A stretch of 64,000 bases of DNA from Perkinsela sp. CCAP 1560/9 (GCA_965644495.1 CBFFSA010000027.1:1-64000), one strand, 5' to 3'; positions 28,033 through 64,000 are shown, counted from the first letter of the stretch. Numbers and translations are program-made. The notes: generated by a model from the sequence alone, not told the origin.

Positions 28033-28888
28033 GGGGAAGGTCTAGCAACGAGCGGAAGGTTTCCCAAGGCGCCGGATCGCGTTCTCGACATCATAAAGGA
28101 CTGGGGAAAGGGTAGCACGTGCGAAATACGATGGGGATTCAATGAGAAAGAGACATATACCAGTGAAGGTGCGGTGTCCAAGAGAACGGTGCGTCGAGGT
28201 TTAGTGAAGCTCACGATTGCATACAAGCCTAAAGAGGGTAGCGAAGGACCCGCTGGTCTTCTTCACCTTCCGCAATCCGCGAAGATCAAAATTTGGTCGA
28301 TTAACGAAGTGAAGATTAACAAATCAAGACTCCCTCCGTTGAATCCGTAGAAGAGAAGAACTCAGACCTGAATGAAAGCTTTGAGACAGCGGACGACGGT
28401 TGCGACCTAGATCCCCTCCCCAGATTTTCGCAAATTGATTCTTCGTTCTCAGTACATGTTGTTGCAATTTTTCGCTCGATTATTGGTGCTTATCCGAAAG
28501 CCAAGACAGAATCAGAGAAATCCGCTATCTGGCACAAACTTTTAAATGCTCCCAGGGATTCTTTAGCAACTTGGAGGCATTTCTCCTGTGAAATCCTATG
28601 ACAGGAAGCCACGGGCGAAACATCACCTTCCCCCCTTCTCTCGTGAGAGAAACTACCTCCAAAAATAACTAGAACAGAACTTACAAGTAAATGAATAAAT
28701 AAATAGATAAATAGATACTTTCGTGTGAGAAAGATGATTCCGTTTTTTTTTTTGCAATTTTTTTTTTATTCTGTAATACGATCTATAACTTTTCTCTCTC
28801 CGTATCCCCCTAACGGGGATTCTGACTTTCTTCACTCACTTTTCAAATCGCGAGGAATTGGGTGGCCCGAATGTCGCTGCTGGTTGTC

Positions 28889-29375
28889 ATCCGTTGAAGT
28901 CGTGGCGCAGAAAACCTCACGAGCGAATTCACAAATGGTCCGAGCAGAAAGAAATTTTAGAGGCTCAAGAACTATCTGCAAATCCACTGCCGAGAGATGC
29001 GGTCCGGTACATCGAGAATACACCGATTTTCGTTTCCTGAGCAGAAAAGGATTTTTGGCGCTCGAAAGAAACACAAACATGATGTTAACCCAACGTCCCA
29101 TACGCAAACTCTGCGCAGCAGCTTTACGAATTGTACCTGTCGTCACGCACGTCGACTTGTCCCTCGGCACTTCGACATCCGTTGAAATCATAGCGCAAAG
29201 AACCCCGCAAAGAATGATTTGGCACATGGTCCGAGCAGAAAGAGATTTTAAAGGCTCAAGAACTATTTGCGACACATCCGTTGCCGAGATATGCGAACCT
29301 GCCCACCGAGAATACACCAACGCATTCTGTTTCCTGAGCAGAAAAGGACTTTTGGCGCTCGAAAGAAACATAAAC
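28889..29375 (-). repeat. ~290-bp degenerate duplication carrying four GAGC-N17-GCTC motifs; probable non-autonomous retrocopy (poly-T at 28743-28768)
   Basis: Motifs at 28942, 29039, 29233, 29336. Confidence 0.75.
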
Positions 29376-30926: not shown

Positions 30927-30927
30927 C

Positions 30928-32055: not shown

Positions 32056-32058
32056 CCC

Positions 32059-36053: not shown

Positions 36054-36080
36054 GTTTAAGTAATCTCAATAAAAAAAAAT

Positions 36081-39934: not shown

Positions 39935-42900
39935 AGTGGAGCGCATATATTATATACGCGCCGATTACTATCAAATGTGAGACATGTTCACCTTCCCCCC
40001 TTCTCTCAATTTTCAAAGAGAAACTATCCCGAAAATGAAATCTATATAATTTTATAAGCTGACTCAGCTTATAGTGATATTGTGTTTAGAACTTATATAC
40101 TATATTCTTGAGTTTGCGTGCAGCCGTCTAAGTATTTCTTTAGCTGCGCATAAATCCCTAATCCATTAAGCTCCTGAATCGTCAGCTTCATTTCGAGTTC
40201 GACCTGTTTCCTGTTTAGCATGGCCGCGTCTGCTAGCGAGTGTACCAAGTTCTGCGTATTGCGGTGCAAAGCGCCTCCTGCCAGTACGGGTAAACATTGA
40301 AATGAGTCTTCACGAATTAAGTTCGTACGTACATATGTGTTGGACTTTCGCTGCAGCGCGTCATTCATGAGCTGTGTGCATTTCTTTCCACGATTAGACA
40401 TTGAGAGTTCGTGAATAACTGTCAGATCATAGAAGACCGCACCCGTGTTCCAATAGATCACGAGATCGGGGCCAGACCGACAAAGTTTTTTTCCTGCACA
40501 AGTCTTCTGATGTACCAACTGGTTTTCCGGACTGATTGTGGATCGGCAAGCGATGCACTTCCACGTAGAAAAGTTTCTAGGTTCCGTTTCACATGGGATG
40601 CCTGCTTTCACGCATAGACGATGTAAAAATCCGACAAGTGAGTTATGTTTCACGGTCGTATTTATACCTGAACATTGAGCACAGCCTGGGATATGGGTGA
40701 GGGCGTTTCGGTTATTGAGGAGAATACCGCACCCTGGACACAATAGACTGGTAGGTAGATCTGGGTGTTGGGCATTTAGTCGTGGCATAATCGCGAGTTT
40801 GAAGAGATGGGAAGGGATGTACTTCGCGTTGGAAAGGATCCAGTCGCTGTTTCCTTTGAAGGATGTGGCTTGTAGAATGGGCTTAATGTCGGGATCCGTT
40901 TGCAACTCTTTCAATACTTCGACATGATGAATGCTGGTGGAAGCTTTTTCGTCCACTGGTATGACTTTCATTGTCGAGTTCTTAGGAATAGACGGGTGTG
41001 ATGGCACCGCGTTGTCGATCCGAGCTGAAAAAGAGTTTCGGCGCTCAAGAACCGAGTAGCGGGATGCCACATATGCCGTCTCCCTAAGGGGACTGCTCGC
41101 TGTCAAACCCATTCCTCCCTTCTTAACGGGTAATCGTACAATTTTCATTTGATCAGGAGAGAGTGGACCAATCCAAGTCTCTACCACATTTTCAACCTCT
41201 TGATCGAATTGTGATGATGCTTTCTCTGTTGTTTCGGGCGGGTGGACACGAATCAGGTATTGTTGACGAACATTGGCACATTTTGCTAAAAGAATCATCG
41301 ATATATTATTGATGCCCATTCGTTTTAGCCGCCGAAAAGCTGTGACCTGCTTCTCTAGTTGACGCAAAAGTCGTTCACTTATTGTGTTGTTTTCTCCAAT
41401 ATACGCTCCGAGTACTTTGACCGCTTCGTCCTCCGACTTTACACCTTGGGTGCTCAGCGAATTCGGTATGGAATTTCCGGATTTTCCTCTGAACCAAACG
41501 CATTTTGCCTCGGCTAGTTTCACCTGTTTTTCTTCTAGGAGACCTTTGAGCCTAAAGAATGCTTTCTCCAGTTCGGTTGAATCTCGAGACACTAACGTTA
41601 TATCGTCAATGTATGCATTTATTTCAATACCTGGAAATTCGGAGGCCAGTGTCTCGAGTATTGGTTGACAGAATACGCAAAAGTAAAGACTAGCCAGAGC
41701 GGACCCTTGCCGTACACCTGCTGAGCTCATTATAATGTCCGTCAGGCTGCCATCGGAGCCATAAAATAAAAGTTCGGAAGCATTTGAATATTCGGCCGCA
41801 AAGAACCTTTGAAAGGGTTTCAGTGTAGCGAAAGCAAAAACGCACTTTGCAATTTCCTCTCGTGAGGGTGAGTTGAATGCATTTTGCATATCCACAGTCA
41901 GGATTGAGTGTCCGTCAAGCCAGCGGTCCCGCAACTTGTGTACGATTCGTTCGCACCCCGCTTGAGAGAATACGCCTTGTTGCATTGGTGCAAAGAGGGG
42001 TTCCAGTGACTTTTCGTATCTTTGCAGCAGAATTATTCCAGCTAATTTGCTAAATATTTCTCCAATAGCTACTGGGCGTACTCCCCCGTTGGGCTTGTCG
42101 ATGGCTACGAGTCTTGCCCGATTTAGACGCTGTAGAACTTGTCTAGATAGGAATCCGTTGATCAGATCGCTCATCATGTGACAAAGACTATTGCAACATG
42201 GCTCGTCGTCTATGAGAAGTCTAACGATGCTGTCGGTCGTACCTGTAGGCCCAGGGCTCACACCTTTTGCCAGTCGTCTACTTGCACATCTTAATTCTTG
42301 TACGGCTATTCCTGCGATAATCGGTGCATCTTCCGGAACTTTGAAATTGCAGTTTTGTTCTGGATGAAGTGCACGTAGTTTTTGGACTTTTTCTTGATCA
42401 GTCAACGTGCTCTTCTGAAAAGAACAGTCCAAAATCCTTGAAGCCTTCGATGTACAGTTTTCTAGCACCAAACGAGTGGCCCGTTTGATTGCTCGCTTGT
42501 CCTCATGAAAAAACTCGTCTTCTGGTTGATTGTGTTCAACTGTCTCTTGTTGTATGGGTCTTCGCCGCCGTTGTCTACTATTGGCTTGACGCACAGAAGC
42601 TAATGAAAGTTTCATTGCAGACAAAACTTTATTCCAAATTTGATTTCTTTGTACGTAGTCGCTTTCTGCATAGATGTGCATGATGTCCCTGTATATGGCA
42701 ATCACACTGGAGATAAAATCAGGACTAATGGTTTTCGCGGTTGGAATTGGGAGATGGTCTACGTCTGCAGCTCCTGTGTCCAGCTTAAGCGCTCTGGCCT
42801 TTTTAACATGTGTTTCTTCGCGGGTCTCAATAGGAAGGTTCTCGTCAATGGCTGGAGGAGCTCTGTACCAACGGATCTGATATACACGGATATTTTCTTG

Positions 42901-43906: not shown

Positions 43907-46119
43907 TGGCCACACGAATGATATCAGCCTGACCCTTGTCTTTCATCAAAGACTCGCGCACTGCATTGTGGTGGACTTCTTCCGTAACCGCTTCATCAGT
44001 GAGAGGTCGTTGGCTGGAGAGCGAGTTCAGCGCTGGCAAATCCATTAGAGTAGCGGGAGCTGAAAGATGAATTGGTCGCTCCATAGCTGCTCGTTTGGAT
44101 TTGAAGAACGCTGCTTCGCGAATCGGTTCAGTTGGGGTGAGCCCGAGTCCTCCTTTCTTCAGTGGTAGCCTCATCCATGATATTTGGTCTTCGTTGAGGT
44201 TCCCGAACCATGAACATAGCGTGTTTGCCACCTGGGAATCAAACTGCCGACTGAGTTCCAAAGACGCATCAGGATGATGCACGCGTATGTCGTACCTGTG
44301 ACGCATATTCACGCAGTGCGATAGTAAAACGATAGAGACGTTGCTGGCCCCCATGTGCTGTAGGCGCCGGAAAGCTGCTTGATGCTTCACAACTTTTTGG
44401 ACTAATTTTTCGCTAACGCTTTCTTTCTCTCCGACGAAGGCCCCCAAAATGTTGGTAGCCCGGCTTTCGGATAAAACTCCCGCCTCCTGCAAGACGTGCG
44501 GAATGGGGATTCTTTCGATGCCTTCAAACCAGGCGCATTTTGTTGGGGATAATTCCACTAGCTTAGCAGTCAATAAAACTCGAAGACGGTTGTAAGCGTT
44601 GGCAATTAGTTCTGAGTCCTTTGATGCGAAGCTGATGTCGTCGATGTAGGCGTATATGCGAAGTGCCGGGAATTCTGAAGCAACGATCTCTAAAATTGGT
44701 TGCATAAACGCGCAGAACATAATCGTGGACAACGGCGACCCCTGCCTCACCCCGGCTGAACTTTTCAAGGTGGCTCCAAGATTGCCGTTGCTCCCGTAAT
44801 AAAGAAGTTCTGATGGACTGGAGTATTCGGCATTAAAGAGACGCTGAAAGGGGCGGAGACCATGGAATCCGAACACGGCTCTTGCAATTTCATCCCTGGC
44901 TGGTGAATTGAAGGCGTTTCTGAGATCAATAGCCAGAATGGCGCATCCCTCTGTGTATTTCTCGTTAAGCTTATGCACGACATGCTCGCAGCCAGACTTT
45001 ATCATAACACCAAACTGATAAGGCGCAAAGAGCGGGACAAGCTGTTTCTCGTGCCGCTGCAGAAGGACGATTTCGGCAAGCTTCAACCAGACCTCCCCCA
45101 CAGCGATTGGACGAATTCCGTTTCCAGGTTTGGGAATCGCTACAAGTCGCGCTCTCTTCACGCGTTTCATTACTTCTTCAGACAGTGATCCATTAATCAG
45201 GTCGGTAATCATGTGACACAAACTTAACGAGCACACCTCGTCGTCTAACAGGATGCGCAAAATTGAATCCGTTGTGCCTGTTGGTCCTGGCGCCGCCCCT
45301 TTGGCCATGCGTCTTCCGGCCTCCCGAAGCTCGACAGGCGTAATACACGCTGTCATCGGAGCATCTTGCGGGAGGCGAAATGTGGTGGGGAGATCTGGAT
45401 GCAAAGCACGAAGTTTTTCAATGGTTTCCGAGTCGCTGAGTGTTCGTGGTGTAATTTCCTGGTAATAACTCGGGACGCTTTGGAAACACACCCGTCTAAT
45501 GCCAGACTAGTTGCTTTCTTGATGGCCCGTTTGTCATCTATAAGACGTGGTCCGTTGGCGGTGGAGGTGTGTCCGTTTTGAGATTCGCCGTCTTGCAATG
45601 ACGAAAAATCGCGCGGGCGACGTCGACGTCGTTTCGCCGTTGCCTTCCGAATTGTGGCAAGAGAATATTTCATGGCTGATAACGTTCGATGCCATATGCG
45701 GTTCCTTTGTGGGTATGGGGATTCTGCGTAATCTCGAACGATGTCTCGGTAAATTGCAACTACGCAAGGAATGAATTCCGGTGCAACTGATCGCAGAGTA
45801 GGCATGGGCTCAAGATCTAGGTCGTTTTCTGTGTGTTGATAATTAACGCGAAGCGCCCGGTTAATTCTTTCTTCAGACCGGCAGCTTTTTATACTTCCAG
45901 GATCACTTTCCTGATGTGTGTTATTTTCCCACACGATCTTAAAGACGCGAACGTTTGCTTGCGGGGGAATATGACCAGTGAAGGTTGTTCCGATCTTGTG
46001 TCCCACAATCCCCACATACTCCATGGTCCATTTGTTCAAGTGCTTTCTTTTCTGCGACGCTTTAACGATTCCTTGTGATACGTTGAGGCTTGGCGAACAA
46101 TCAAAGCTCCAAGCCAAAA

Positions 46120-46211
46120 TAATAAACAAAAAGGGGGTAATAAACAAAAAGGGGGTAATAAACAAAAAGGGGGTAATAAACAAAAAGGGGGTAATAAACA
46201 AAAAGGGGGTA
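46120..46211. repeat. Type 2 18-bp repeat, ~5 units
   Basis: Direct inspection. Confidence 0.95.
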
Positions 46212-46283: not shown

Positions 46284-47038
46284 TTTTTTTTTTTTTTTTT
46301 TTTTTACATATAAAAAATCCTCTCTTTTTATGTATATATTATCGGAATTACTAATGTGAACACTATTGTGGTATTCTTGATTTATCGTGTATTCAAAATT
46401 CACCGTTAAAGATTTCCTATTTTTTTTTTAACGCACCTCGCTAACGGCATTCAACTGGTATTCACAGGGCCGTTTCATCTCCATCGACCGGTGCCAAGTA
46501 TTTCCTAAATTGAGACATTGCGACCGAACCATTCAGTTCTTGCAATTGCAAAGCGAAATCCTGGTGAATCTTATCGCGTGCCAGTCCACATGCATCTGCA
46601 AGAGCCGACAATAATTCCTTGGTGTTTGGATGCATGGCGCCTCCAGAAAGCATGGGAATGCACAAAAACTGCTGTTTCGGAATTAAGCTCGACACGACGT
46701 ACCGGTTAATCTTACGCTTGATAGCGTCTCGCATGAGAATTGCGCCGCTGCGTTTGATGTTGGATTGTGAAAGCTCGTGTATGACGGTAAAATCATAAAA
46801 GATGTCCCCGTCTGCCCAATGGATGACTAAATCTGGCCCGGAATGGTGGAATGAACCAGATCCGCAAGTCCTTTGGTGTGACGCTTTATTTTCACCGTCA
46901 ACAGTGGTACCGCACTTTCCGCAGGTGTATGTCGCGAATTGTCTAGGTTCGAGCTCGCAGGGAATGCCGGCCTTAATACATAGCGCATAGAGTTGACGCA
47001 CCATTCTGTTGTGTTTTGTGGTAGCGTTAATCCCAGAG
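46284..47038 (-). mobile_element. Family D copy 2, 3' part with poly(A); continues at 57932-58277
   Basis: T22 at 46284-46305; near-identical to 39024-39738; RLE ORF 46462-47004. Confidence 0.88.
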
Positions 47039-47098
47039 ACGAAGTGAGAACTTCCGCAATGGCATTGTCAAAATTGAACGTTAATGCCTCAGTCGCAG

Positions 47099-48984
47099 TT
47101 TTTTTTTTTTTTTTTTTTTTATGAATCGCGGCATTGCCTCTATATTTTGACCCAGTAGACGAACCAAGTACATAGTAGGTCCATTGGGGGGTATACGAAT
47201 TTAAAACAAGCAATCAAATTAGCAAATCTTTTTATTTCCACAGAAGTATATTTTCTTTTTCTTTTTTCTCAGCCCAAAACTAGCAATTCAATCTCCCCTA
47301 GGTATATGATGATGATGATGTATTGGGCCTTTTGACTCCGAAAAGTTATGGCCCCTCAACTCCCCAAACGGGCAGTCCGAATACGTCTTGCGACGTATCC
47401 GGAGAGCCAGCCATAGCAAGCTACGGCTGACCTCCGCTTGGAGAGGAGTTAGGTTACAGCTAGGGAGGTGGGGTGCGCTATACCCCTGCGCCTTAGGTAA
47501 TGCAAATAAGGCGCCCCTTGACCAAAAAAAAACCACTCTATCTTTTGAGGGTGGATAAAAAAAAAACACAAACACATTCCAAAGATTAGCCCGAATGGCA
47601 CCCACCCTAGTTTCTTAGTACCTTGTTATATTCGGTACCGGGCGGTGCCACCCATTCTACGTTGCCAGAATGATATCCACCCTAATTATTTAGTGCCTCG
47701 TTTTACTGGCACCGGGTAGTGTCATCCATATTGTCTTCGTTGTGCTCACCCTAGTTCTTTAGCGTCTTGTTATGCGACGCCGGGTGAGTTAGCTCGGGAA
47801 GCTGGGATCGCTAAGTCCCATCATCCGACATAAGCCGGATGCCCTGACATAACCCCTAGGTATATACGACAAACAAGACACAGTAAAAATAAAAACAAGC
47901 AATCCAGGCCCAATCCATTCGCGCGTTCCGGACCGGGTCTTTCGACCACTCCACGGCCTGACTTGTGAACCCGTCCCTTGCTATACGGGAGGGCGCAGGC
48001 GCGGGCCTGTGTCGACAGCGACACGGTCGCGAAACAGGATGCTGGCCGACGGGGAGGAGATTCACTGCCCGTGTACTACCTCACTTGGGGTACCTAGCCC
48101 TCGCGGGCTAGGCGTGAGCATAGACTCTGTCGACCCGACCAGCACCCGTCCTGGATACCATGGCGTCTTCGTGCTGAAATAGGACTGTCAGTAGAGGCTT
48201 AAGCCTCTACCAAAGGATCCGCTGGGTCCTCTACGCGGATGCGCGAAACCATCATCCTGGCTTGAGAACGCATTAGCGTCACGTTCAGATCTGTTAGGAG
48301 ATCGTTTCGCGCTTGGTGTCGTGAAAGGAGCCCTTTGAATGCATTCGCCCGTTGGGTTCCGATGTCCCGGAGTAACGCTAGCGCACTCTCGCTCCAGGAA
48401 CCAAAGGATTCCACCACCATCGCTGTGAAGAGGTGTCCTGCTTTTTCTGCTTCTTGTCGCTGTCGCGCCTTGGTCTCCGCGAAGTGCTCGGCAAAAGACC
48501 CCGGGGTCACCCAGCTAGCATTGTGGACTGAGTCCAAATACTTTGTTTGCTGTGCGTGAGTGACCGCAAAATCTAGGACCATGCCTTGCGCTAAAGATCC
48601 TTTGGCGATGGAGGCATTTGGCAGAAATACGTCTGCTGGTCTCGTGAGAGCCCCCCCAGGACCCCGATTTCCCAAACTCTTCTCTCTCTGTGGCGCCAGG
48701 AAGGCTCTGCTGCAGAACGATGTAAATTGTTGGGCCAGAGCGTTGTGCCGTGAGATGATACCATGGCCGTTCTTGCAGAGCAAAGCGTGCTCTCCATTCT
48801 TGAGCAAGGGAAGGGTGCACCCGTCAGCTGGGCAAGGCCGATCTTCGGGGAAGACGTCCATGCCTAGCCACCAGCGTGTTAGGGTACGAAACTCCGTGTG
48901 GGTGAAAGCGTAGCCTCTGGTCTTGGAGGGAGTTGCGAAAGCCCAGTTTCCGGCCCCTTTTCCGGACTGCGAGATCCATCGCAG
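47099..48984 (-). mobile_element. Family E2, 5'-truncated CRE-like element (CCHC + RLE ORF 48199 to ~48984)
   Basis: Poly-T at 47099-47120, 3' UTR homologous to E, CPADGC..HALLC, RPAD..LDFAV. Confidence 0.85.
47308..47852 (-). mobile_element. 545-bp structured SINE-like insertion with 13-bp TSD and (ATC)n tail
   Basis: CCCCTAGGTATAT at 47295-47307 and 47853-47865; absent from family E UTRs. Confidence 0.75.
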
Positions 48985-49727
48985 TTTTTTTTTTTCTTTT
49001 TTTTTTTTTTATTGTTCCCCAACTTTGTGACCAACAACGCCCCGATACGAGATAGATAACTTACCAAATCCTTTTTTTTTTTTTTTTTTTTTTTGAACCT
49101 AGATCTTGTTTACATTACAACCGGTTAATAATTTCACCTTTGTGCTTTCCCTCTAATAATTTCACCGGTGCTCGCTGTTTCCCGTCGCTGTCTAGGCGTT
49201 TGGTTTTTTTTTTTTGGGGGGGGGAGTAGTATTGATTCTAATGTTTATATCTATGTTTCGAACTTTCCACCACTTAAAACCTTTCACCCTACTTCCTTCC
49301 TTCCCCTACTTCCTTCCCCTCACCGCACTCACTTCCCTTCCCCCACTTACGCCCTACCGACTGACGCGTCCCTACTGACCGGCTCGTCCGCACTGTGGCC
49401 CATGTGGTCCAGGACCTCCGCTCCCACCCCGTTAGCAGTATAAGATACTTTGAGTTGCTGTACGAGGGTGGGAGACTTAGAGGAGACGAAACGCATAGCC
49501 GCCGTCACGCCGAGGGCAAAAAGCGGGAAGAGGGACATGGCGGGACGGACGCGGGGACAAGGAGAAACGACGCCCGAGCCCATCGGTCTGGACCTCTGCC
49601 CCGACCCCGTGAGCAAGTATACAATACTTTGGGCTGCTGGCACGGGGGTGGGGGACGCAAGAAACGTTAAAAGAAAAGTTTTTTTTTTTTTTTTTTTTTT
49701 TTTGCAATTAATAAGGGGGGAGAAGTA

Positions 49728-50850
49728 TGAATCGCGGCATTGCCTCTATATTTTGACCCAGTAGACGAACCAAGTAGGTCCATTGGGGGGGGTATACGAG
49801 TTGAAAACAAACAATCAAATTAGCAATTCTTTTTCTGTCCACAGATGTACCTTTTTTCTCAGCCCAAAACTAGCAATTTAGTCTCCCCTAAGTATATACT
49901 ACAAACAAGAAAAACAGTAAAAATTAAAACAAGCAATCCATGCCCAATCCATTCGCGCGTTCCGGACCGGGTCTTTCGACCTCTCCACGGCCTGACTTGT
50001 GAACCCTTCCCTTGCTATACGGGAGGGCGCAGGCGCGGGCCTGTGTCGACAGCGACACGGTCACGAAACAGGATGCTGGCCGACGGGGAGGAGATTCACT
50101 ACCCGTGTACTACCTCACTTGGGGTACCTAGCCCTCGCGGGCTAGGCGTGAGTATAGACTCTGTCGACCCGACCAGCACCCGTCCTGGATACCATGGCGT
50201 CTTCGTGCTGAAATAGGACTGTCAGTCCGAATCCCTACCTATCTCACCTTGGGGTACCTCACTCACGAAGGCGAGGCGTGAGAATAGGCACTGTAGGCTC
50301 GATCGCTCCTGCCGGTCCGCAGCTGGCACGATTTGGTGTGGTGTCAGAGGGTGCCTCGTTCAGTAAAGCGAGACTGGCATGGATATCCACGTCTGCCATG
50401 CGTCTTACAAGCATTCGTGCCTGAGACCGCATGAGCGTAACGTTCATGTCCTGGAGAAGAAAAAACATTGACGCTTGCTCGGACATATCACCCTTACATG
50501 CTGCGGCTCTTTTTCCCGCGATCTTCTTCAGCATATGGAGGGACGTCGGGCTCCATGATCCGTACGATTCCACTACCATGGCGGTGAAATCATGTCCGGC
50601 CTCTATAGCCTCTTGCCTTTGTCCACGCTTGTGGTTCGTTGCATATTTCTCTGCGAAGGCCCCTGCAGCTACCATGCCAGCAGAACGGACCAGGTCCGTA
50701 TATTTCTGTTGCTGGACGTGGGTCACCGCAAAATCAAAGACAAGGCCTTTACCGAGCGTGTAGCTCGGAAGGAACACATCCCCTGGTCTTGTGAGTGCCC
50801 CCCCTGGACCTCTGTTGCCGAGGCTGTGCTCCCTTTTCGGAGACAAATTG

Positions 50851-50853
<3 letters not shown>
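49728..50853 (-). mobile_element. Family E 5'-truncated copy (RLE ORF end + 3' UTR)
   Basis: Matches the 3' 1.1 kb of the long E copy. Confidence 0.88.
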
Positions 50854-50881
<28 letters not shown>

Positions 50882-51971
50882 GTAGACGAACCAAGTAGGT
50901 CCATTGGGGGGGGTATACGAGTTGAAAACAAACAATCAAATTAGCAATTCTTTTTCTGTCCACAGATGTACCTTTTTTCTTAGCCCAAAACTAGCAATTT
51001 AGTCTCCCCTAAGTATATACTACAAACAAGAAAAACAGTAAAAATTAAAACAAGCAATCCATGCCCAATCCATTCGCGCGTTCCGGACCGGGTCTTTCGA
51101 CCTCTCCACGGCCTGACTTGTGAACCCTTCCCTTGCTATACGGGAGGGCGCAGGCGCGGGCCTGTGTCGACAGCGACACGGTCACGAAACAGGATGCTGG
51201 CCGACGGGGAGGAGATTCACTACCCGTGTACTACCTCACTTGGGGTACCTAGCCCTCGCGGGCTAGGCGTGAGTATAGACTCTGTCGACCCGACCAGCAC
51301 CCGTCCTGGATACCATGGCGTCTTCGTGCTGAAATAGGACTGTCAGTCCGAATCCCTACCTATCTCACCTTGGGGTACCTCACTCACGAAGGCGAGGCGT
51401 GAGAATAGGCACTGTAGGCTCGATCGCTCCTGCCGGTCCGCAGCTGGCACGATTTGGTGTGGTGTCAGAGGGTGCCTCGTTCAGTAAAGCGAGACTGGCA
51501 TGGATATCCACGTCTGCCATGCGTCTTACAAGCATTCGTGCCTGAGACCGCATGAGCGTAACGTTCATGTCCTGGAGAAGAAAAAACATTGACGCTTGCT
51601 CGGACATATCACCCTTACATGCTGCGGCTCTTTTTCCCGCGATCTTCTTCAGCATATGGAGGGACGTCGGGCTCCATGATCCGTACGATTCCACTACCAT
51701 GGCGGTGAAATCATGTCCGGCCTCTATAGCCTCTTGCCTTTGTCCACGCTTGTGGTTCGTTGCATATTTCTCTGCGAAGGCCCCTGCAGCTACCATGCCA
51801 GCAGAACGGACCAGGTCCGTATATTTCTGTTGCTGGACGTGGGTCACCGCAAAATCAAAGACAAGGCCTTTACCGAGCGTGTAGCTCGGAAGGAACACAT
51901 CCCCTGGTCTTGTGAGTGCCCCCCCTGGACCTCTGTTGCCGAGGCTGTGCTCCCTTTTCGGAGACAAATTG

Positions 51972-51974
<3 letters not shown>
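50854..51974 (-). mobile_element. Family E 5'-truncated copy with poly(A)
   Basis: T28 followed by the same 1.09-kb segment. Confidence 0.88.
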
Positions 51975-52003
<29 letters not shown>

Positions 52004-55000
52004 GTAGACGAACCAAGTAGGTCCATTGGGGGGGGTATACGAGTTGAAAACAAACAATCAAATTAGCAATTCTTTTTCTGTCCACAGATGTACCTTTTTT
52101 CTTAGCCCAAAACTAGCAATTTAGTCTCCCCTAAGTATATACTACAAACAAGAAAAACAGTAAAAATTAAAACAAGCAATCCATGCCCAATCCATTCGCG
52201 CGTTCCGGACCGGGTCTTTCGACCTCTCCACGGCCTGACTTGTGAACCCTTCCCTTGCTATACGGGAGGGCGCAGGCGCGGGCCTGTGTCGACAGCGACA
52301 CGGTCACGAAACAGGATGCTGGCCGACGGGGAGGAGATTCACTACCCGTGTACTACCTCACTTGGGGTACCTAGCCCTCGCGGGCTAGGCGTGAGTATAG
52401 ACTCTGTCGACCCGACCAGCACCCGTCCTGGATACCATGGCGTCTTCGTGCTGAAATAGGACTGTCAGTCCGAATCCCTACCTATCTCACCTTGGGGTAC
52501 CTCACTCACGAAGGCGAGGCGTGAGAATAGGCACTGTAGGCTCGATCGCTCCTGCCGGTCCGCAGCTGGCACGATTTGGTGTGGTGTCAGAGGGTGCCTC
52601 GTTCAGTAAAGCGAGACTGGCATGGATATCCACGTCTGCCATGCGTCTTACAAGCATTCGTGCCTGAGACCGCATGAGCGTAACGTTCATGTCCTGGAGA
52701 AGAAAAAACATTGACGCTTGCTCGGACATATCACCCTTACATGCTGCGGCTCTTTTTCCCGCGATCTTCTTCAGCATATGGAGGGACGTCGGGCTCCATG
52801 ATCCGTACGATTCCACTACCATGGCGGTGAAATCATGTCCGGCCTCTATAGCCTCTTGCCTTTGTCCACGCTTGTGGTTCGTTGCATATTTCTCTGCGAA
52901 GGCCCCTGCAGCTACCATGCCAGCAGAACGGACCAGGTCCGTATATTTCTGTTGCTGGACGTGGGTCACCGCAAAATCAAAGACAAGGCCTTTACCGAGC
53001 GTGTAGCTCGGAAGGAACACATCCCCTGGTCTTGTGAGTGCCCCCCCTGGACCTCTGTTGCCGAGGCTGTGCTCCCTTTTCGGAGACAAATTGGCCTTTT
53101 GACAAACGTCAAAGAACTGGAGGGCCAAGGCATTATGCCTCGCAGAGATCCCGTAGTCGTGTTTACAGACCAATGCGTGGTCTCCTTGTGGTCCCATCGG
53201 AAGCGTGCAGCCTGAGACGGGACAGGGGTGTGTTTCTGGATATACTTTTTGTCCTAGCCACCAGGTGCACAGGGTGCGGAACTCCGTTTTAGTAAAGGCG
53301 TGCCCCTTTTCCCTGGAGGGCGTGACAAACAGCCAGTCACCTGCCCCTTTTCCAGATTGAGATATCCAACGTGCCCTCGTTTGAGGATCAGCTTTCTGAT
53401 ATGCATCGGTGTACTCGCGGGAAGAAATTGCACGGCTGAGCACCTTTTGGCGTGCGACTCGGTCGTTGGAAGATGAAAACTCGTGGTCGAGTTTCGTTTG
53501 TTCAAAGTAAGGGGTCGTCGTGTCTCCGGGTGGTGCTACGGGAAGATTCGCCGGGAGAGGTCGTTTTGATCCACGGAGACCCAGTACTTTTTTGAGGTGA
53601 GAGAGAGAGGAAGCGTGCTGAGGGGAAATTAGACCGGTTTTCTCTTCCAGGACGCTGGTGCCCGCTCGTGAATTGACGTCCAGTACTGCATCAGCAAAAT
53701 CTTTTGCGTCGAGGGAGTTCCAGTTGTCCTTATCCGCTGCGAAAGAGACTGAGGAAACGTACGCCGATGAGGCATGCATCGCTGAAGAGCGCAGCCCGAA
53801 TCCACCGTAAGATTTTGGACGTTGTACTTGTGCGGCAGCATCTTCATTTAAAGGACATATAGAGCGTTCCGTGGTATGTAGTATTGCTGTGTCAAGTTCT
53901 TCGCATAACTCATGGACGGAATTGGTGGGTGTGGTTCTAAGAGAATATGCCATTTGGCTGAAACCAGCACACTGTCGGATGAGTGCGAGGGAAACTTGCG
54001 GGTCTTCCATGTATTCGATCGCGGCTAGGGATTCTTCAGCAGGCAACAGGGTGTGTTCACGGAGAAATTCTGTGCAGAAATCAGTCGTTCCTACAGGGCT
54101 ACCTAAAATTGAAAAATTTCCCTCGCTTGTCTTTTTAGTCGTCGGGATGTTGCCGAAGCTGTCCAGGTGTTCGGCGGATTCAGGATGTGTGATCGCCTCG
54201 CACTTGTTGGCGTTTAGGAAGATGCCCCACTGTGGGCCGACTCGTTCGATGATGTCTAAAGCTCGTCTGACGTCTTGAGCCTTCCCCCCGAGAATGCCGT
54301 CATCCAAATACCACAGATTAAGCTTAAGAAGACCAGGAAGTTGTCGATCTATCTCGGTAGTAACCAGTTGCATGACGAGGGAAAAAAGTAAAGGACCCAA
54401 CGGATCCCCTTGTTGCACACCCTCCTTTGAAGAAATCTGACGGAAACCGTAAGTGAGAATACTCTCGGTGGTGTAACACCATTCAACCCACGGGGAGAGC
54501 TCCGGGAAGTGCTCCCTCGTAAGTGCAGCAAAGGCAGTTCTTGAGATGTTGTTAAAGGCATTTCGCAGATCCACTTTACATAGCGTGAAATCAGAACTTC
54601 CCGCCTGAGAGGCCATCACGTGCCTACACAGGTGGATCAGGCGTTCGGCCCCTGCAGGTGTTGCGACTCCGTATTGATGAGGCCAGAGTAGTTTGCTTGC
54701 CTTTTCCTTTACTGCGGAGCAGGCCGCTTTGCTCACAAGTCGCCTTATTGTTTCGCCGGCAGCAATAGGACGGACATCATTTTCTCCTTTTTCTAAGGCA
54801 CATAGTCTGGCGCCGCCGAAGAACTTCTGGACTTGGAGACAACCTTTCCCGGACAGCAAGAGGTTCATGACTTCCTTGAGATAGAAAAGCGGCTGTACCT
54901 TGTCATCAGGGTGTGCTGCTAAGGCGCTCTGGAGATGCTCAGGGCGGAGGCCCATGGTGCCAGCCGATGTTCCGCGCCGGAAACTGCGTAGTGCCTTTTC

Positions 55001-55998
55001 AACTTCGCCTTCGGATAGATGTAAAGGCTCTCCTTCTATGGGTCGGAATGTGACGGAAGATGATAAAGGCAATCTACCTGGGTGCTTCGATTGGAGTTTT
55101 TCGTAAGTTTCTTCGGATTCAGGTGCCATCGGTGCTGCTGTAAGGGCTGCCATCGCACGGGAAAACTCCCCTTGTCTGGCCAGCCACTCGACTCGTTTCG
55201 CCGCCTTGCCGGACTCGTCCACTTCCTCATCGTCGCTCCTCTCCCGCTTCTTTACCATTTGCGCAACAGATTCGTTCCACAGTGCCGCGTATTCCCTGGA
55301 TTCCCAGCGATCCATGCGTTGGCTCGTTTTCGTGGTATAGGACGAATTTCCTTTTCGTCCCCCTCTTTTGGGCGCGGGCAGGACACATTTTGGGAGCATC
55401 GCTAAGCGTGTCCAGGCCTCAACCGAGTTCTCTCTAACCACTGCAGCCATTGTTTGAGTCAAAACAGAGGCCCACTGTTGTCTGCATCGGAATGGTACAT
55501 CTTTGCATGTGTTGATGGCGTAAGAGCAGACACAATCAAGAGACGGGAGCGAATCCTTGTAAATTTGGGAAATGGAAGCCTCTTCGGTTTCTGGCTCACA
55601 GGTTAGCGACGAGGTGTAAGAGCCCAAGGAGTCTTGACATTTTTCCTCATGGGAAGCTTTTTTATTGTGATCATAGTGCTTGCCGCATGAGGGGCATAAG
55701 AAACGTCCTTCTTTTTCCCACCATTCCGAAGGCACAGTATCGCTATGTTGGCTTGCGACGTGATGGTAGTAGGCCTGCCACTTCCCTCCGTGTGATGCGG
55801 TGCTCCAGTTGCACACTTCGACTGGACAGGTGCGACGTCTCATTGTGTCTCGTCTAGCTGGTTGGCGAGTCTTGGAATCTTTACTAACCCCTCTCTCGAA
55901 AATTTTGGGCGTCGACTTTTGGCTAGAAAGAGGGCTTTTTCGTGGGAGAAGCCTCGCTGTGGCCATGGAATGTGGTTCGTACCGCTCTGGGGTTTGGC
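51975..55998 (-). mobile_element. Family E near-full-length CRE-clade retrotransposon
   Basis: T29, ~500-nt 3' UTR, intact ORF. Confidence 0.92.
52502..55966 (-). CDS. Zn fingers + RT + CCHC + RLE polyprotein (family E)
   Basis: CPVEVC..HVASQH, CPSC..H...C, RPIAAGE, VDLRNAFN, GVQQGDPLG, YLDD, CPVSGC..HALVC, RPGD..FDFAV. Confidence 0.92.
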   Translation of the reverse strand: MATARLLPRKSPLSSQKSTPKIFERGVSKDSKTRQPARRDTMRRRTCPVEVCNWSTASHGGKWQAYYHHVASQHSDTVPSEWWEKEGRFLCPSCGKHYDHNKKASHEEKCQDSLGSYTSSLTCEPETEEASISQIYKDSLPSLDCVCSYAINTCKDVPFRCRQQWASVLTQTMAAVVRENSVEAWTRLAMLPKCVLPAPKRGGRKGNSSYTTKTSQRMDRWESREYAALWNESVAQMVKKRERSDDEEVDESGKAAKRVEWLARQGEFSRAMAALTAAPMAPESEETYEKLQSKHPGRLPLSSSVTFRPIEGEPLHLSEGEVEKALRSFRRGTSAGTMGLRPEHLQSALAAHPDDKVQPLFYLKEVMNLLLSGKGCLQVQKFFGGARLCALEKGENDVRPIAAGETIRRLVSKAACSAVKEKASKLLWPHQYGVATPAGAERLIHLCRHVMASQAGSSDFTLCKVDLRNAFNNISRTAFAALTREHFPELSPWVEWCYTTESILTYGFRQISSKEGVQQGDPLGPLLFSLVMQLVTTEIDRQLPGLLKLNLWYLDDGILGGKAQDVRRALDIIERVGPQWGIFLNANKCEAITHPESAEHLDSFGNIPTTKKTSEGNFSILGSPVGTTDFCTEFLREHTLLPAEESLAAIEYMEDPQVSLALIRQCAGFSQMAYSLRTTPTNSVHELCEELDTAILHTTERSICPLNEDAAAQVQRPKSYGGFGLRSSAMHASSAYVSSVSFAADKDNWNSLDAKDFADAVLDVNSRAGTSVLEEKTGLISPQHASSLSHLKKVLGLRGSKRPLPANLPVAPPGDTTTPYFEQTKLDHEFSSSNDRVARQKVLSRAISSREYTDAYQKADPQTRARWISQSGKGAGDWLFVTPSREKGHAFTKTEFRTLCTWWLGQKVYPETHPCPVSGCTLPMGPQGDHALVCKHDYGISARHNALALQFFDVCQKANLSPKREHSLGNRGPGGALTRPGDVFLPSYTLGKGLVFDFAVTHVQQQKYTDLVRSAGMVAAGAFAEKYATNHKRGQRQEAIEAGHDFTAMVVESYGSWSPTSLHMLKKIAGKRAAACKGDMSEQASMFFLLQDMNVTLMRSQARMLVRRMADVDIHASLALLNEAPSDTTPNRASCGPAGAIEPTVPILTPRLRE

Positions 55999-56119
55999 TT
56001 TTTTTTTTTTTTTTTTTTTTTAAGTCTTTTTTTTTTACGTGACTCGATAAGTTCATCTCGCACATCAACTTCTTATCGACTTTACATCACAACTTGCGGG
56101 AGGACGCAGACTAGTCCTC

Positions 56120-57822
56120 ACGTTTCTCTTAGCTTTCCGTGAGCGCGAAGATTGCTCATCCGGAAGTTGACGAAACCCAGCCGAGCTGAAAGGAGGTTTG
56201 GGCGCTCGAGGCCAGAAATCACAACCTGCGGATAAGACACCAACACGCTTCGCGCAGACAAGTCCTCATGGCACGTTTCCCGTAGCTTTCCGTGAGCGCG
56301 AAGATTACTCATCCGGAAGTTGACGAAACCAAGCCAAGCTGAAAGGAGGTTTGGGCGCTCGAGGTCAGAAATCACAACCTGCGGATAAGAAACCAACACG
56401 CTTCGCGCAGACAAGTCCTCATGGCACGTTTCCCGTAGCTTTCCGTGAGCGCGAAGATTACTCATCCGGAAGTTGACGAAACCCAGCCGAGCTGAAAGGA
56501 GGTTTGGGCGCTCGAGGCCAGAAATCACAACCTGCGGATAAGAAACCAACACGCTTCGCGCAGACAAGTCCTCATGGCACGTCTCCCGTAGCTTTCCGTG
56601 AGCGCGAAGATTACTCATCCGGAAGTTGACGAAACCCAGCCGAGCTGAAAGGAGGTTTGGGCGCTCGAGGCCAGAAATCACAACCTGCGGATAAGAAACC
56701 AACACGCTTCGCGCAGACAAGTCCTCATGGCACGTTTCCCGTAGCTTTCCGTGAGCGCGAAGATTGCTCATCCGGAAGTTGACGAAACCAAGCCAAGCTG
56801 AAAGGAGGTTTGGGCGCTCGAGGTCAGAAATCACAACCTGCGGATAAGAAACCAACACGCTTCGCGCAGACAAGTCCTCATGGCACGTTTCCCGTAGCTT
56901 TCCGTGAGCGCGAAGATTACTCATCCGGAAGTTGACGAAACCCAGCCGAGCTGAAAGGAGGTTTGGGCGCTCGAGGCCAGAAATCACAACCTGCGGATAA
57001 GAAACCAACACGCTTCGCGCAGACAAGTCCTCATGGCACGTCTCCCGTAGCTTTCCGTGAGCGCGAAGATTACTCATCCGGAAGTTGACGAAACCCAGCC
57101 GAGCTGAAAGGAGGTTTGGGCGCTCGAGGCCAGAAATCACAACCTGCGGATAAGAAACCAACACGCTTCGCGCAGACAAGTCCTCATGGCACGTTTCCCG
57201 TAGCTTTCCGTGAGCGCGAAGATTGCTCATCCGGAAGTTGACGAAACCCAGCCGAGCTGAAAGGAGGTTTGGGCGCTCGAGGCCAGAAATCACAACCTGC
57301 GGATAAGAAACCAACACGCTTCGCGCAGACAAGTCCTCATGGCACGTTTCCCGTAGCTTTCCGTGAGCGCGAAGATTGCTCATCCGGAAGTTGACGAAAC
57401 CCAGCCGAGCTGAAAGGAGGTTTGGGCGCTCGAGGCCAGAAATCACAACCTGCGGATAAGAAACCAACACGCTTCGCGCAGACAAGTCCTCATGGCACGT
57501 TTCCCGTAGCTTTCCGTGAGCGCGAAGATTACGCATCCGGAAGTTGACGAAACCCAGCCGAGCTGAAAGGAGGTTTGGGCGCTCGAGGCCAGAAATCACA
57601 ACCTGCGGATAAGAAACCAACACGCTTCGCGCAGACAAGTCCTCATGGCACGTTTCCCGTAGCTTTCCGTGAGCGCGAAGATTGCTCATCCGGAAGTTGA
57701 CGAAACCCAGCCGAGCTGAAAGGAGGTTTGGGCGCTCGAGGCCAGAAATCACAACCTGCGGATAAGACAACGACACGCTTCGCGCAGACATGTCCTCATG
57801 GCACGTTTCCCGTAGCTTTCCG
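56120..57822. repeat. 153-bp tandem repeat, ~11 units
   Basis: 51-aa periodicity in the ORF track; direct inspection. Confidence 0.95.
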
Positions 57823-57895
57823 GGAGCCTTTCTCCTCTTTCGAATGATGGGGCGCGTGCCCCCGGCAGACATCAGGTTTAAAAACTTAAAAAAAA

Positions 57896-57931
57896 CAACA
57901 AGGTACAGAAACTGTATCTTTATCGTTAAAG
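57896..57931 (-). other. Spliced-leader exon, 36 nt
   Basis: CTTTAACGATAAAGATACAGTTTCTGTACCTTGTTG, ending exactly at a TSD. Confidence 0.88.
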
Positions 57932-58277
57932 TCCCAGAGCATTTAACGCATCCGGACACGTGAGCAATTGCGCTGCTGGAGGTGAGGAGAACGTGGCACC
58001 CAGGACATTGTACCTTCGATGGTAGCAACGGATGCTCTATTCCGAAACGGGGCATTATCGCCAACGTGAAAAGTCGCGAAGGAATGAATTTGGTGCAAGC
58101 GGTGAGCCAATTGTAATTCCCTTTCGCACTGGCCACACGAATGATATCAGCCTGACCCTTGTCTTTCATCAAAGACTCGCGCACTGCATTGTGGTGGACT
58201 TCTTCCGTAACCGCTTCATCAGTGAGAGGTCGTTGGCTGGAGAGCGAGTTCAGCGCTGGCAAATCCATTAGAGTAGC
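57932..58277 (-). mobile_element. Family D copy 2, upstream part
   Basis: Continues 47031-47038 through the TCCCAGAG duplication. Confidence 0.85.
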
Positions 58278-58305
58278 ATAAAAATCCTTTTATGACTAAA
58301 ATATC

Positions 58306-61300
58306 TTTTTTTTTTGCCCGTGGAGCGCATATATTATATACGCGCCGATTACTATCAAATGTGAGACATGTTCACCTTCCCCCCTTCTCTCAATTTTCAA
58401 AGAGAAACTATCCCGAAAATGAGATCTATATAATTTTATAAGCTGATTCAGCTTATAGTGATATTGTGTTTAGAACTTATATACTATATTCTTGAGTTTG
58501 CGTGCAGCCGTCTAAGTATTTCTTTAGCTGCGCATAAATCCCTAATCCATTAAGCTCCTGAATCGTCAGCTTCATTTCGAGTTCGACCTGTTTCCTGTTT
58601 AGCATGGCCGCGTCTGCTAGCGAGTGTACCAAGTTCTGCGTATTGCGGTGCAAAGCGCCTCCTGCCAGTACGGGTAAACATTGAAATGAGTCTTCACGAA
58701 TTAAGTTACTCCACGAGCCAAAAGACTCGACAACCATGGCCGTGAACCCTAGTTGTGCTTCTTCTTTTTTTTTTTTTTTTTTTTTTTTAGGTCCTCGCCG
58801 GTGTTCTCTTCATCGAAGGTCCCCACTACCCAACATCATCTGGTATTTTTATCTTATGAGCCGTCATTACTGTTTTTTTTTGTGTTATCTTGTGTGCTTT
58901 TGGCCCGATTTCCGGAGTAACTTCAAAGATTCAGCATTGTAGACTTCCTACCCAATGTTCTTGGGCCATATATATAAACTTTTAGAACTTGATAAAATTG
59001 ATAACCATTGCACATACTCAGTTCCACTTTTTACCTATCTTTATCACCAATGTCTGTCCTAAGATGTTGCAACGTCTTGAGATTAAAACCAAATCATCAT
59101 CTAGCATTTTAGCTTATGTGCCGTCATCACTGTTTTTTTTTTGTGTGTTATCTTGTGTGCTTTTGGCACGATTTCCGGAGTAACTTCAAAGATTCAGCAT
59201 TGCAGACTTCCTACCCAATGTTCTTGGGCCATATATTGCCGCAGTTGCGAGAAGATAGTGTATGCGGAGAATTTTTCAATTTCCAATTGGAATGCTTCTC
59301 GAGTGTTTTCTACGTCTAGGCCTGCCCTATTTGCCAGTGTCTTGAGGAGTTCCTTAGTTTCCTTGTGAAGAAGACCACAATCTGTTACTGGTATGCAGCG
59401 AAAGTATTCTTGGTCCAATCCTTTTTCCTGCACATATTTCCGTTGCTTACGGTCTACCGCATTTTGGAGGAGGGCAACGCTTGTCTGCCGCTTGTAGCTC
59501 CCACAACAAGTGTGCACCACTGTCACATCGTAGAGTATCTCCCCAACATTTGGCCACATTATGGCCAGATCAGGGCCTGAACGAATTCTCCGAGCACGAC
59601 AAGGATGATGTTCTGCAGCTTCAGGTGAAATGGAACATTTGCACTTCGTGCAGAAGAAGGAAGAATGAAGGCGTGGTTCTATAGCGCAGGGTACTCCAGC
59701 TTTGGCACAAAGATCGGAAAGGTAGCGCACGATGTGGGAGTGCTTTCTCGTACAGTTCATCCCTGCACATCTTGAACACCCAGCTACATGTGAAATGATT
59801 CCATGTGGTGTTTCCGTGGCGCCGCATCCTGGACAAGTAATTTCATTCGGCGCACCTTGGAGTGCGATACCAAGCCGCATCATGAGTGTATATCGGAAGA
59901 GATACGGATTCACGTAATTATTTGTCGCTGCCAAGTGGAGATTTGCTTTTTTGATCGCTTCATAATGCCCGCAAATCTATCCTTTTGCATCAGTTCTGAA
60001 GCCAGTGTTTCATGTTCTAACTTAATCTGCTTTTTGAAATCAGTACGTGCGGCTTGGCTGGAGGATTAAGTTCGTACGTACATATGTGTTGGACTTTCGC
60101 TGCAGCGCGTCATTCATGAGCTGTGTGCATTTCTTTCCACGATTAGACATTGAGAGTTCGTGAATAACTGTCAGATCATAGAAGACCGCACCCATGTTCC
60201 AATAGATCACGAGATCGGGGCCAGACCGACAAAGTTTTTTTCCTGCACAAGTCTTCTGATGTACCAACTGGTTTTCCGGACTGATTGTGGATCGGCAAGC
60301 GATGCACTTCCACGTAGAAAAGTTTCTAGGTTCCGTTTCACATGGGATGCCTGCTTTCACGCATAGACGATGTAAAAATCCGACAAGTGAGTTATGTTTC
60401 ACGGTCGTATTTATACCTGAACATTGAGCACAGCCTGGGATATGGGTGAGGGCGTTTCGGTTATTGAGGAGAATACCGCACCCTGGACACAATAGACTGG
60501 TAGGTAGATCTGGGTGTTGGGCATTTAGTCGTGGCATAATCGCGAGTTTGAAGAGATGGGAAGGGATGTACTTCGCGTTGGAAAGGATCCAGTCGCTGTT
60601 TCCTTTGAAGGATGTGGCTTGTAGAATGGGCTTAATGTCGGGATCCGTTTGCAACTCTTTCAATACTTCGACATGATGAATGCTGGTGGAAGCTTTTTCG
60701 TCCACTGGTATGACTTTCATTGTCGAGTTCTTAGGAATAGACGGGTGTGATGGCACCGCGTTGTCGATCCGAGCTGAAAAAGAGTTTCGGCGCTCAAGAA
60801 CCGAGTAGCGGGATGCCACATATGCCGTCTCCCTAAGGGGACTGCTCGCTGTCAAACCCATTCCTCCCTTCTTAACGGGTAATCGTACAATTTTCATTTG
60901 ATCAGGAGAGAGTGGACCAATCCAAGTCTCTACCACATTTTCAACCTCTTGATCGAATTGTGATGATGCTTTCTCTGTTGTTTCGGGCGGGTGGACACGA
61001 ATCAGGTATTGTTGACGAACATTGGCACATTTTGCTAAAAGAATCATCGATATATTATTGATGCCCATTCGTTTTAGCCGCCGAAAAGCTGTGACCTGCT
61101 TCTCTAGTTGACGCAAAAGTCGTTCACTTATTGTGTTGTTTTCTCCAATATACGCTCCGAGTACTTTGACCGCTTCGTCCTCCGACTTTACACCTTGGGT
61201 GCTCAGCGAATTCGGTATGGAATTTCCGGATTTTCCTCTGAACCAAACGCATTTTGCCTCGGCTAGTTTCACCTGTTTTTCTTCTAGGAGACCTTTGAGC

Positions 61301-63041: not shown

Positions 63042-63473
63042 TTACATATAGCGGCTTTTCTTCACAAAAATGGGGGCATTCGTCAGTCTACCCCGTGATG
63101 TCTTGTACTGAGAAAACGTTACTGGATCCCCGGTATTAGCTTCTGGGTTGAGTGAACGAGCAATCCTGACTGTGCTGCCTTCTTCTGTATTTTTCAGTTT
63201 CCCTTTTTTCATATTCACTTTGTGTGGAGATTTTTCTTGGAGATCATGCTCCCTTTTTTGACCGTGATTAGATTTGTTTCCCTCCCTTTGCGTGTGAATG
63301 ACGCATGAAAAACGACGTGCAGCTGTTCTCTGTGCTTTGCGTGCTATTTCATCAGCTTTTTCATTGAAGGAATTCCCGCAGTGTGCCCGCACTTTAATAA
63401 CGTAGAGACTACTATCTGTACAACGCTCTTTAATTGCTCCTTGTATCTGCGTGAGTAGGTCAGCATTTGGCAT
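63042..63473 (-). pseudogene. RNase H (type I) C-terminal fragment
   Basis: NADLL..I....KVRAHCGNSFNEKADEIAR; the N-terminal catalytic residues are missing, replaced by the repeat. Confidence 0.7.
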
Positions 63474-63536: not shown

Positions 63537-64000
63537 AGATCAAGTTTTTTGTAAGATCAAGTTTTTTGTAAGATCAAGTTTTTTGTAAGATCAAGTTTTT
63601 TGTAAGATCAAGTTTTTTGTAAGATCAAGTTTTTTGTAAGATCAAGTTTTTTGTAAGATCAAGTTTTTTGTAAGATCAAGTTTTTTGTAAGATCAAGTTT
63701 TTTGTAAGATCAAGTTTTTTGTAAGATCAAGTTTTTTGTAAGATCAAGTTTTTTGTAAGATCAAGTTTTTTGTAAGATCAAGTTTTTTGTAAGATCAAGT
63801 TTTTTGTAAGATCAAGTTTTTTGTAAGATCAAGTTTTTTGTAAGATCAAGTTTTTTGTAAGATCAAGTTTTTTGTAAGATCAAGTTTTTTGTAAGATCAA
63901 GTTTTTTGTAAGATCAAGTTTTTTGTAAGATCAAGTTTTTTGTAAGATCAAGTTTTTTGTAAGATCAAGTTTTTTGTAAGATCAAGTTTTTTGTAAGATC
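63537..64000. repeat. 17-bp tandem repeat type 3 (AGATCAAGTTTTTTGTA)n, >27 units, runs off the window
   Basis: Direct inspection. Confidence 0.97.

Follow-up and report, generated by a model that had tools for sequence, protein, structure and literature searches.

The closest described systems are non-autonomous partners of non-LTR retrotransposons. In Drosophila, the R2 and R2/R1 SIDEs are poly(A)-tailed, are not transcribed by Pol III and rely on the RT of their partner, with template jumps in vivo; they retain the partner's 5' ribozyme and 3' UTR (PMC3414825). MoTeR2 of Magnaporthe (PMC7367193) and the FoTeRs (PMC12857005) show a non-coding partner of an RLE-type, CRE-related element, arranged in head-to-tail arrays with short repeats between. 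MoTeR2 has an 860 bp 5' and a 77 bp 3' terminus in common with MoTeR1 (PMC7367193). The RIME, NARTc and SIDER elements of trypanosomatids are non-autonomous and derived from ingi, whose 5' signature is the 77-nt Pr77, and the CRE clade (SLACS, CZAR, CRE1, CRE2) combines a kinetoplastid-type host with an RLE-type C-terminus and poly(A) (PMC12278014).

The repeat RNA reported here is, like the SIDEs, non-autonomous, poly(A)-tailed and not of Pol III type. It differs from SIDEs and MoTeR2 in having neither end of an RT element: one ORF-internal hairpin of about 45 nt is carried many times over, and the 5' end is made by trans-splicing. Self-blastn found only the spliced leader (SL) and the U-run in common with an RT. 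Neither the 5' self-cleaving ribozyme of a SIDE nor the Pol III head of a SINE (tRNA, 7SL, 5S) was found, as there was no Rfam match in 55500-58500 at E 10 or better and the 5' end is the spliced SL. The repeat RNA would work like a SIDE or MoTeR2 but lacks the feature by which these are defined, because its ends are not shared. The RTs around it resemble the CRE clade in host type, RLE-type C-terminus and poly(A). CRE elements are further characterised by a C-terminal CCHC motif and by insertion at a fixed site in SL RNA genes. The internal repeats of CRE elements belong to the element itself, whereas the repeat RNA is a separate SL-capped RNA, and no ORF-internal hairpin is named for CRE or ingi elements in the excerpt of PMC12278014.

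The window, that is the whole stretch of 64,000 nucleotides that was analysed, is a stack of non-LTR retrotransposon copies, almost all on the minus strand, which sit within each other and within the arrays of 17/18-bp repeats that space them. We labelled its RT families A, B, C, D, E, F and G. An RVT_1 domain is present in all four families tested (A, D, E and G), and RLE-type C-terminal motifs are found in families B-E (C-x2-C-x10-H-x3-C and GPD-x12/13-D) and G (RPGD). These motifs are RLE-type yet off the SLACS/CRE consensus of PMC12857005, and our RT tree was built without any named CRE protein. The 5' ends of the RT elements carry a full or partial leader with a core matching the Perkinsela SL primer (PMC5601477). 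The host is therefore probably a kinetoplastid-type protist, although of another strain than the one with that primer. In families A and B and in one inverted element, the leader at the start is reduced to its final ~15 nt, with the break at almost the same position (3872, 7800, 11725, 15671, 20175, 24407 on the minus and 25929 on the plus strand).

Several other features of the window were recorded. Family A forms five near-identical units of ~3.9 kb at 400-20245, each ending ~78 codons past the hairpin and without endonuclease; these were likely amplified by recombination. Three kinds of 17/18-bp arrays lie between elements (196-25923, 30050-46211, 63537-64000), of which two look related, on opposite strands; the arrays abut leader ends and truncated 3' ends. 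By analogy with the tracts between MoTeRs, they may be telomere-like. The word TTAAC recurs at the F insertion site (39722-39745), where the 3' end of A meets the 18-bp array (16695-16720) and near the SL 5' end (57918-57935), and is a possible endonuclease target. A MITE-like element of ~1.1 kb with ~124-bp terminal inverted repeats (30925-32058) is inserted in an 18-bp array. At 63042-63473 on the minus strand, a 143-aa frame from another element resembles by eye the C-terminal half of RNase H (HCGN..NE.AD..A).

The coordinates of the repeat RNA copy and of the related features are presented in Table 1. A reading of the bare sequence (the sequence-only reading) had described the copy as a complete SL-to-poly(A) retrocopy, and this was confirmed: on the minus strand, a 36-nt SL is followed by 11.2 units with an open frame and by A23, and the copy has no target site duplication (TSD) of its own. 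It has no RT coding capacity. The leader, read from 57931 to 57896, agrees in 35 of 36 nucleotides with that of the full-length RT D (36116-36081). It has the core CAGTTTCTGTAC in common with the SL primer of Perkinsela sp. CCAP 1560/4 (PMC5601477), which otherwise differs. In contigs from public runs, many unrelated sequences part ways at 57887-57896, the pattern that the 3' terminus of a leader should give. Every one of the 11 units carries the motif. Its core on the plus strand begins with GAGC in nine units and with AAGC in two, the latter retaining a G-U pair on the RNA strand, so that the claim of eleven motif copies in 153-bp units holds. The 584-aa open frame indeed reads the motif as ERPNLLSAR, in the same frame as the RTs do. 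Units 6-8 and 9-11 have a common variant pattern, from which we infer a duplication of three units within the array.

Table 1. Coordinates of the repeat RNA copy, of the hairpin motif and of associated elements in the window.
Feature	Position	Strand	Remarks
Spliced leader (SL), kinetoplastid-type, 36 nt	57896..57931	-	no intron before U-rich 5' UTR
Unique 5' part	57828..57895	-	U-run, ATG at 57872, basic N-terminus (MSAGGTRPIIRKRRKAPG)
Tandem units	56119..57827	-	11.2 copies x 153 bp, 97% matches
First of 11 motif cores, GAGC-N17-GCTC/T	56183..56207	-	
Remaining motif cores, end positions	56360, 56513, 56666, 56819, 56972, 57125, 57278, 57431, 57584, 57737	-	
Open frame, 51-aa repeats, 584 aa	56118..57872	-	ATG 57872 to TGA 56118
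Degenerate last unit / 3' UTR	56022..56118	-	ends in A10-GACTT
Poly(A), 23 nt	55999..56021	-	5' UTR of element G follows directly
Predicted ~100-nt rod of one unit, motif at tip	57063..57164	-	z -3.3, 0/200 shuffles as good
Second motif RNA-like insert, x29	28740..29375	-	four hairpins, two ~295-bp units, A-rich 3' end, 179-codon open frame
x29 hairpin cores, end positions	29360, 29257, 29063, 28966	-	
Motif core, RT family A	612-636, 4540-4564, 8468-8492, 12411-12435, 16915-16939		
Motif core, RT family B	21381-21405		
Motif core, RT family C	27393-27417, 38207-38231		
Motif core, RT family D	33509-33533		
Motif core, RT family E	41022..41046	-	
Motif core, second E copy	60771-60795		
Motif core, RT family F	44057-44081		
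RT family A	400-19042		five tandem copies
RT element G, full-length	52004..55998	-	RT, RLE-type C-terminus, poly(A) 51975-52003; without hairpin
Chain of poly(A)-joined pieces, 10,893 bp	47039..57931	-	inserted in one F-type RT copy
8-bp duplication flanking chain	57932-57939 and 47031-47038		compared with uninterrupted F piece

The pattern GAGC-N17-GCTC was seen 25 times on the minus strand of the window, compared with 0.54 expected in ~42 kb of shuffled window. In RT families A-F it always lies 29 codons past LPxxxGGxG; it is missing from G. Alignment of 14 distinct copies with their flanks revealed a common layout of a lower stem, a 2-nt 5' bulge, the GAGC/GCUC stem and a G-poor loop. An inner A-U pair in the loop is invariant in all 14 copies, and the bulge before the G-C, A-U step consists of two pyrimidines in 10 of them. 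Pairing is found in 88.7% of 168 cells, against 27-43% for slid registers, and seven of the 12 pairs are altered on both sides. The covariation score was reached by none of 500 shuffles, a test inflated by the relatedness of the copies and applied to a structure derived from the same sequences. In the fixed register the lower stem is weak in families A (4/8 pairs) and F (5/8), both of which fold with a shifted bulge.

The core is also constrained at the codon level. RT families A-F are only 33-71% identical and have one invariant core. Synonymous sites are saturated among the six families, with pairwise same-codon rates of 0.25-0.38. Among the 43 residues invariant across A-F, three retain a single codon, and two of these are the GAG and GCT of the motif. 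Because these codons are fixed at such a low same-codon rate, conservation of the hairpin core is not explained by relatedness. When the RT peptides were recoded synonymously, core plus lower stem arose with p 0.002-0.017 per family (the families being related). The covariance model used as test had been trained on the six RT motifs alone; another, trained on its own hits, is circular. The test model found 11/11 units at 23-34 bits and 4/4 copies in the insert x29 at 26-38 bits, the best other of the 46 matches listed reaching 14 bits. The motif is thus supported as a nucleotide- and structure-level element common to the repeat RNA and the RT genes, and covariation, RT-only model and codon constraint together bear out the proposal that the two share it. 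Since the motif is constrained, the finding that the sequence-only reading had named as its refutation, a protein gene without motif constraint, is not what we observe.

Among 23 database RT homologues, compared at the protein level only, 11 have a matching peptide at the same place (two of them being the window's own families), three have the anchor without the motif, and nine are without the anchor. Motif-bearing RTs formed two well-supported groups in one larger clade, with G on a long distant branch, in a quick tree that left out P0020, P0001, P0010, P0011, P0013-15, P0017 and window family C. The 24-nt motif had no match in viral contigs or in JGI metagenome contigs, and an RT alignment searched against JGI contigs gave 599 pattern matches with none confirmed. 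A function as splice acceptor was rejected (no AG in B, D or x29), as was a -1 frameshift site (words resembling a slippery sequence fall within the loop, and A, D and F have none). One 5'-truncated F copy starts at 58277, 3 nt past the 3' foot of the hairpin core (compare 44054-44057), as if cDNA synthesis had stopped there; this is a single post-hoc case.

In the structure predicted for the RNA strand, every unit forms a rod whose tip is the motif. The motif stem has a pairing probability of at least 0.99 in the ensemble of the RNA strand, and the opposite strand of the rod region gives z -1.1. Of six unit variants at predicted rod pairs, five break the pair, and the variants thus lend no support to the lower part of the rod. 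The long hairpin that had been ascribed to each unit has to be given up for the RNA: it is an inverted repeat on the plus (antisense) strand, with a pair probability of 0.000 in the RNA-strand ensemble. On the antisense strand it has -17.0 kcal/mol and z -2.4 in one unit and z -0.5 in another variant. This GAGC/GCTC inverted repeat with a short loop is seen at 57346-57400 on the plus strand, and the majority variant weakens it.

Further copies were found in database proteins from other contigs, with frames of 4, 5 and 10 units and, on one 24.9-kb contig, 9+5+3 units in three frames. The search returned six database proteins on four other contigs, one of which, the 5-unit copy, is this locus in another assembly; the others may be alleles or a source gene as well as independent insertions. 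In public runs, three other sequences precede the 5' UTR as loose ends in X1, X2 and X3 contigs, one X3 contig runs on upstream of the 5' UTR in non-SL sequence and may be a source gene, and the run of a second study (X5) has the unit as a collapsed tandem. Contig depth over the repeat relative to the neighbouring RTs varies greatly between runs, and measures neither copy number nor expression. These data support a retrocopied, multi-copy, length-variable family.

The hairpin was also found on two other non-RT scaffolds, unrelated to the repeat RNA and to each other. At its 5' end, the insert x29 adjoins another poly(A) and carries no leader. Its motifs a and b are 103 nt apart, and thus the motif is not tied to one frame; its two units have 17/12/18 differences at codon positions 1/2/3. 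A 376-nt X3 contig (record 19) matches only the 37-nt hairpin at window positions 57708-57744. Its flanks are unrelated, occur also as loose ends in X2 and are complementary to each other by eye, and it is probably a third motif RNA. In all three carriers at least one motif lies within an open frame.

The copy described here heads a chain of poly(A)-joined pieces (Table 1). Its poly(A) abuts the 5' UTR of the full-length G element, which is followed by 3' fragments of G and further poly(A) pieces. The copy itself is not flanked by a TSD; the 8-bp duplication encloses the whole 10,893-bp chain. The chain was likely made by end-to-end template jumping, as known in vivo for R2 (PMC3414825), with the repeat RNA copied last and as far as its leader; successive insertions at the same site are a possible alternative. 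Copying in this chain does not show recognition via the hairpin, because G and several poly(A) passengers are without it; the motif is thus not required for copying here. On the minus strand, a stop-free frame of 716 aa spans the F fragment, the leader and the repeat (56118-58268); the same join, with 5 units, occurs in the other assembly (P0026).

Our tentative preference, based on sequence, is for a non-autonomous satellite RNA, retrocopied, SL-spliced and polyadenylated, which would multiply a hairpin likely bound by a hairpin-reading protein, most likely the RT. RT mRNAs would use the hairpin as the mark by which the RT recognises its own RNA. The site is a variable linker after the RT domain, and an RNA signal placed there should be of little cost to the protein. 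With 4-11 or more hairpins, an RNA would capture the RT in trans, be copied more and lower the activity of the autonomous elements, and its unit number would shift by slippage or unequal exchange. The present copy would have arisen by an end-to-end template jump from the 5' end of G onto the poly(A) of the RNA, a step not necessarily needing the hairpin, and the main effect of the open frame would be that the RNA stays stable and under translation.

The covarying hairpin, the codon constraint and the RT-only model that finds all units and x29 copies argue for the satellite RNA, as do the third carrier, the variable unit numbers, the tandem in a second study and the known template jumps of R2 (PMC3414825). 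It is also consistent with the lack of significant purifying selection on the unit protein (see below) and with the even spread of x29 differences over codon positions. On the other hand, the neighbouring G has no hairpin and is far from the motif clade, the chain also includes poly(A) pieces without the motif, and none of the copies showed a TSD of its own. The weak lower stem in A and F, the rod-pair variants, the open frame around a motif in all three carriers and the signs of a peptide discussed below also speak against it. Of the earlier proposal of a non-autonomous parasite, decoy or scaffold, the shared structured motif and the multi-copy retrocopied family stand, while the long hairpin was placed on the wrong strand and the copy adjoins a motif-less element.

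The first alternative, possible though unlikely, is a sponge kept by the host: a dedicated gene would make an abundant multi-hairpin RNA that titrates the RT or its RNA-binding factor, and retrocopies would be by-products. It draws on the same hairpin evidence, and repeated invention of decoys predicts what we find, at least three unrelated scaffolds with the hairpin. Four contigs with six database proteins do not make a large dispersed family, the X3 contig with non-SL upstream sequence is a candidate source gene, and the copy here is a passenger on G. The binding it predicts is, however, the same as for a parasite. In a more specific and rather unlikely form, an SL-spliced sponge RNA family, built at least three times on unrelated scaffolds, would soak up the RT as a decoy defence against retrotransposons.

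It is also conceivable, but we think it quite unlikely on the present sequences, that the hairpin binds a host protein (for export, localisation, stability or translation control), that RT mRNAs exploit this and that the repeat RNA serves this host protein, not the RT, as scaffold or buffer. One invariant core across RTs as divergent as families A-F would suit a single conserved reader, and the bulge is like the arginine-sandwich sites bound by basic peptides (PMC6189040). Against this, the hairpin was found within the 64 kb only in the RT clade and two repeat RNAs, and most RTs of the clade have an arginine run of their own upstream of the RT domain, as does one distant motif-less RT. A selfish RNA, a host sponge and a buffer for a host protein would look alike at the level of sequence.

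We regard as improbable that the RNA is the mRNA of a real 51-aa repeat protein, perhaps with a hairpin-binding basic N-terminus or a mimic of the RT linker, whose translation the hairpin regulates. From the first ATG past the SL onwards the frame has no interruption, and four database copies have the same stop. Of shuffled units, 13% had a given frame open and 37% at least one sense frame, so that the open frame alone is weak evidence. Four of ten unit variants are synonymous, compared with 26% expected (p 0.25), which gives no significant purifying selection on the protein; copies differ by many amino-acid changes, and one contig has frame breaks, possibly read errors.

No true homologue beyond the protein's own copies was found among 5.8 billion proteins, nor any among 1.84 billion, where nine of 11 matches were unrelated repeat proteins. 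Matches in an Atlas search with the repeat protein reached at most 0.82, and none of 1541 candidates scored in a search with a shorter protein. Seven Pfam matches to the repeat were rejected as summation artefacts, each with no significant stretch. AlphaFold2 modelled the repeat as all-beta with a best pLDDT of 70 and pTM of 0.66, compared with 40 and 0.22 for a control, one unrelated repeat protein of uncertain reality. The five models range from 70 to 28, however, and AlphaFold2 is reported to yield confident, unrealistic beta-solenoids for perfect repeats (PMC11795689). No PDB structure matched the model at an E value of 0.001 or lower, and TM did not exceed 0.16. The upstream flank of the 376-nt X3 contig reads KAPG-x-LR by eye, like the N-terminus of the repeat RNA, with differences mostly at third positions (one contig). 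This and the AlphaFold2 contrast point towards a role for a peptide.

A retrozyme-like self-cleaving RNA multiplying through circles is very improbable: unit size and tandem layout are like those of the non-autonomous animal (non-LTR) retrozymes (~170-400 nt; PMC7229834), but no hammerhead core was found on either strand of the unit, there was no Rfam match, an HDV-like ribozyme was rejected by eye (loop too long), the fold of a circular monomer is not superior to that of shuffled sequences (z -1.6), the copy represents an uncleaved transcript from SL to poly(A), and a cleaving element within RT genes would cut their own mRNA. A neutral minisatellite that arose by amplification of part of an RT gene and was copied accidentally would account for the shared frame and has a parallel in the internal repeat regions of CRE elements (PMC12278014), but is largely refuted: outside the motif the unit scores at most 1.2 bits against the surrounding RT region (the distant G scores 16) and has no blastn match to the window RTs, the rod is strand-specific, and the hairpin recurs on three unrelated scaffolds.

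Our verdict is that the repeat RNA is a real feature and, as we read it, a variety of non-autonomous retroelement partner. A search of full-text literature, by title and start of abstract and with most subscription papers outside its scope, gave no description of this hairpin or RNA. The sponge RNAs of the CsrB/RsmZ type, which are bacterial and whose bound protein is known, contain in multiple copies a hairpin that is present once in their target mRNAs. Their layout is like that of the repeat RNA, which differs in being eukaryotic and retrocopied and in having only a candidate ligand. The upper stem of HIV TAR also reads GAGC/GCUC. In an arginine-sandwich site of the TAR type, the pyrimidine bulge forms a base triple and binds arginine. 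The arginine-sandwich motif of TAR and 7SK has, as in our hairpin, a pyrimidine bulge 5' of a G-C, A-U step (PMC6189040). The hairpin differs from TAR in its 17-nt loop with an inner A-U pair instead of a hexaloop, and in four of 14 copies the bulge is something other than two pyrimidines; we regard the two as similar but not homologous.

If the decoy reading is true, the hairpin offers a first handle on how RT elements recognise their own mRNA. The candidate self-recognition signal of a CRE-like clade is testable, being an RNA of about 45 nt with natural variants from six families and natural arrays of varied length. Arrays that restrain the elements would amount to transposon control by decoy RNA, and arrays that only ride along would be retro-parasites of a new design. 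In the papers cited here, non-autonomous partners take over the ends of the non-LTR element on which they depend. At this locus, what is shared is a covarying hairpin from within the coding sequence of the RT, and separate RNAs have multiplied it.
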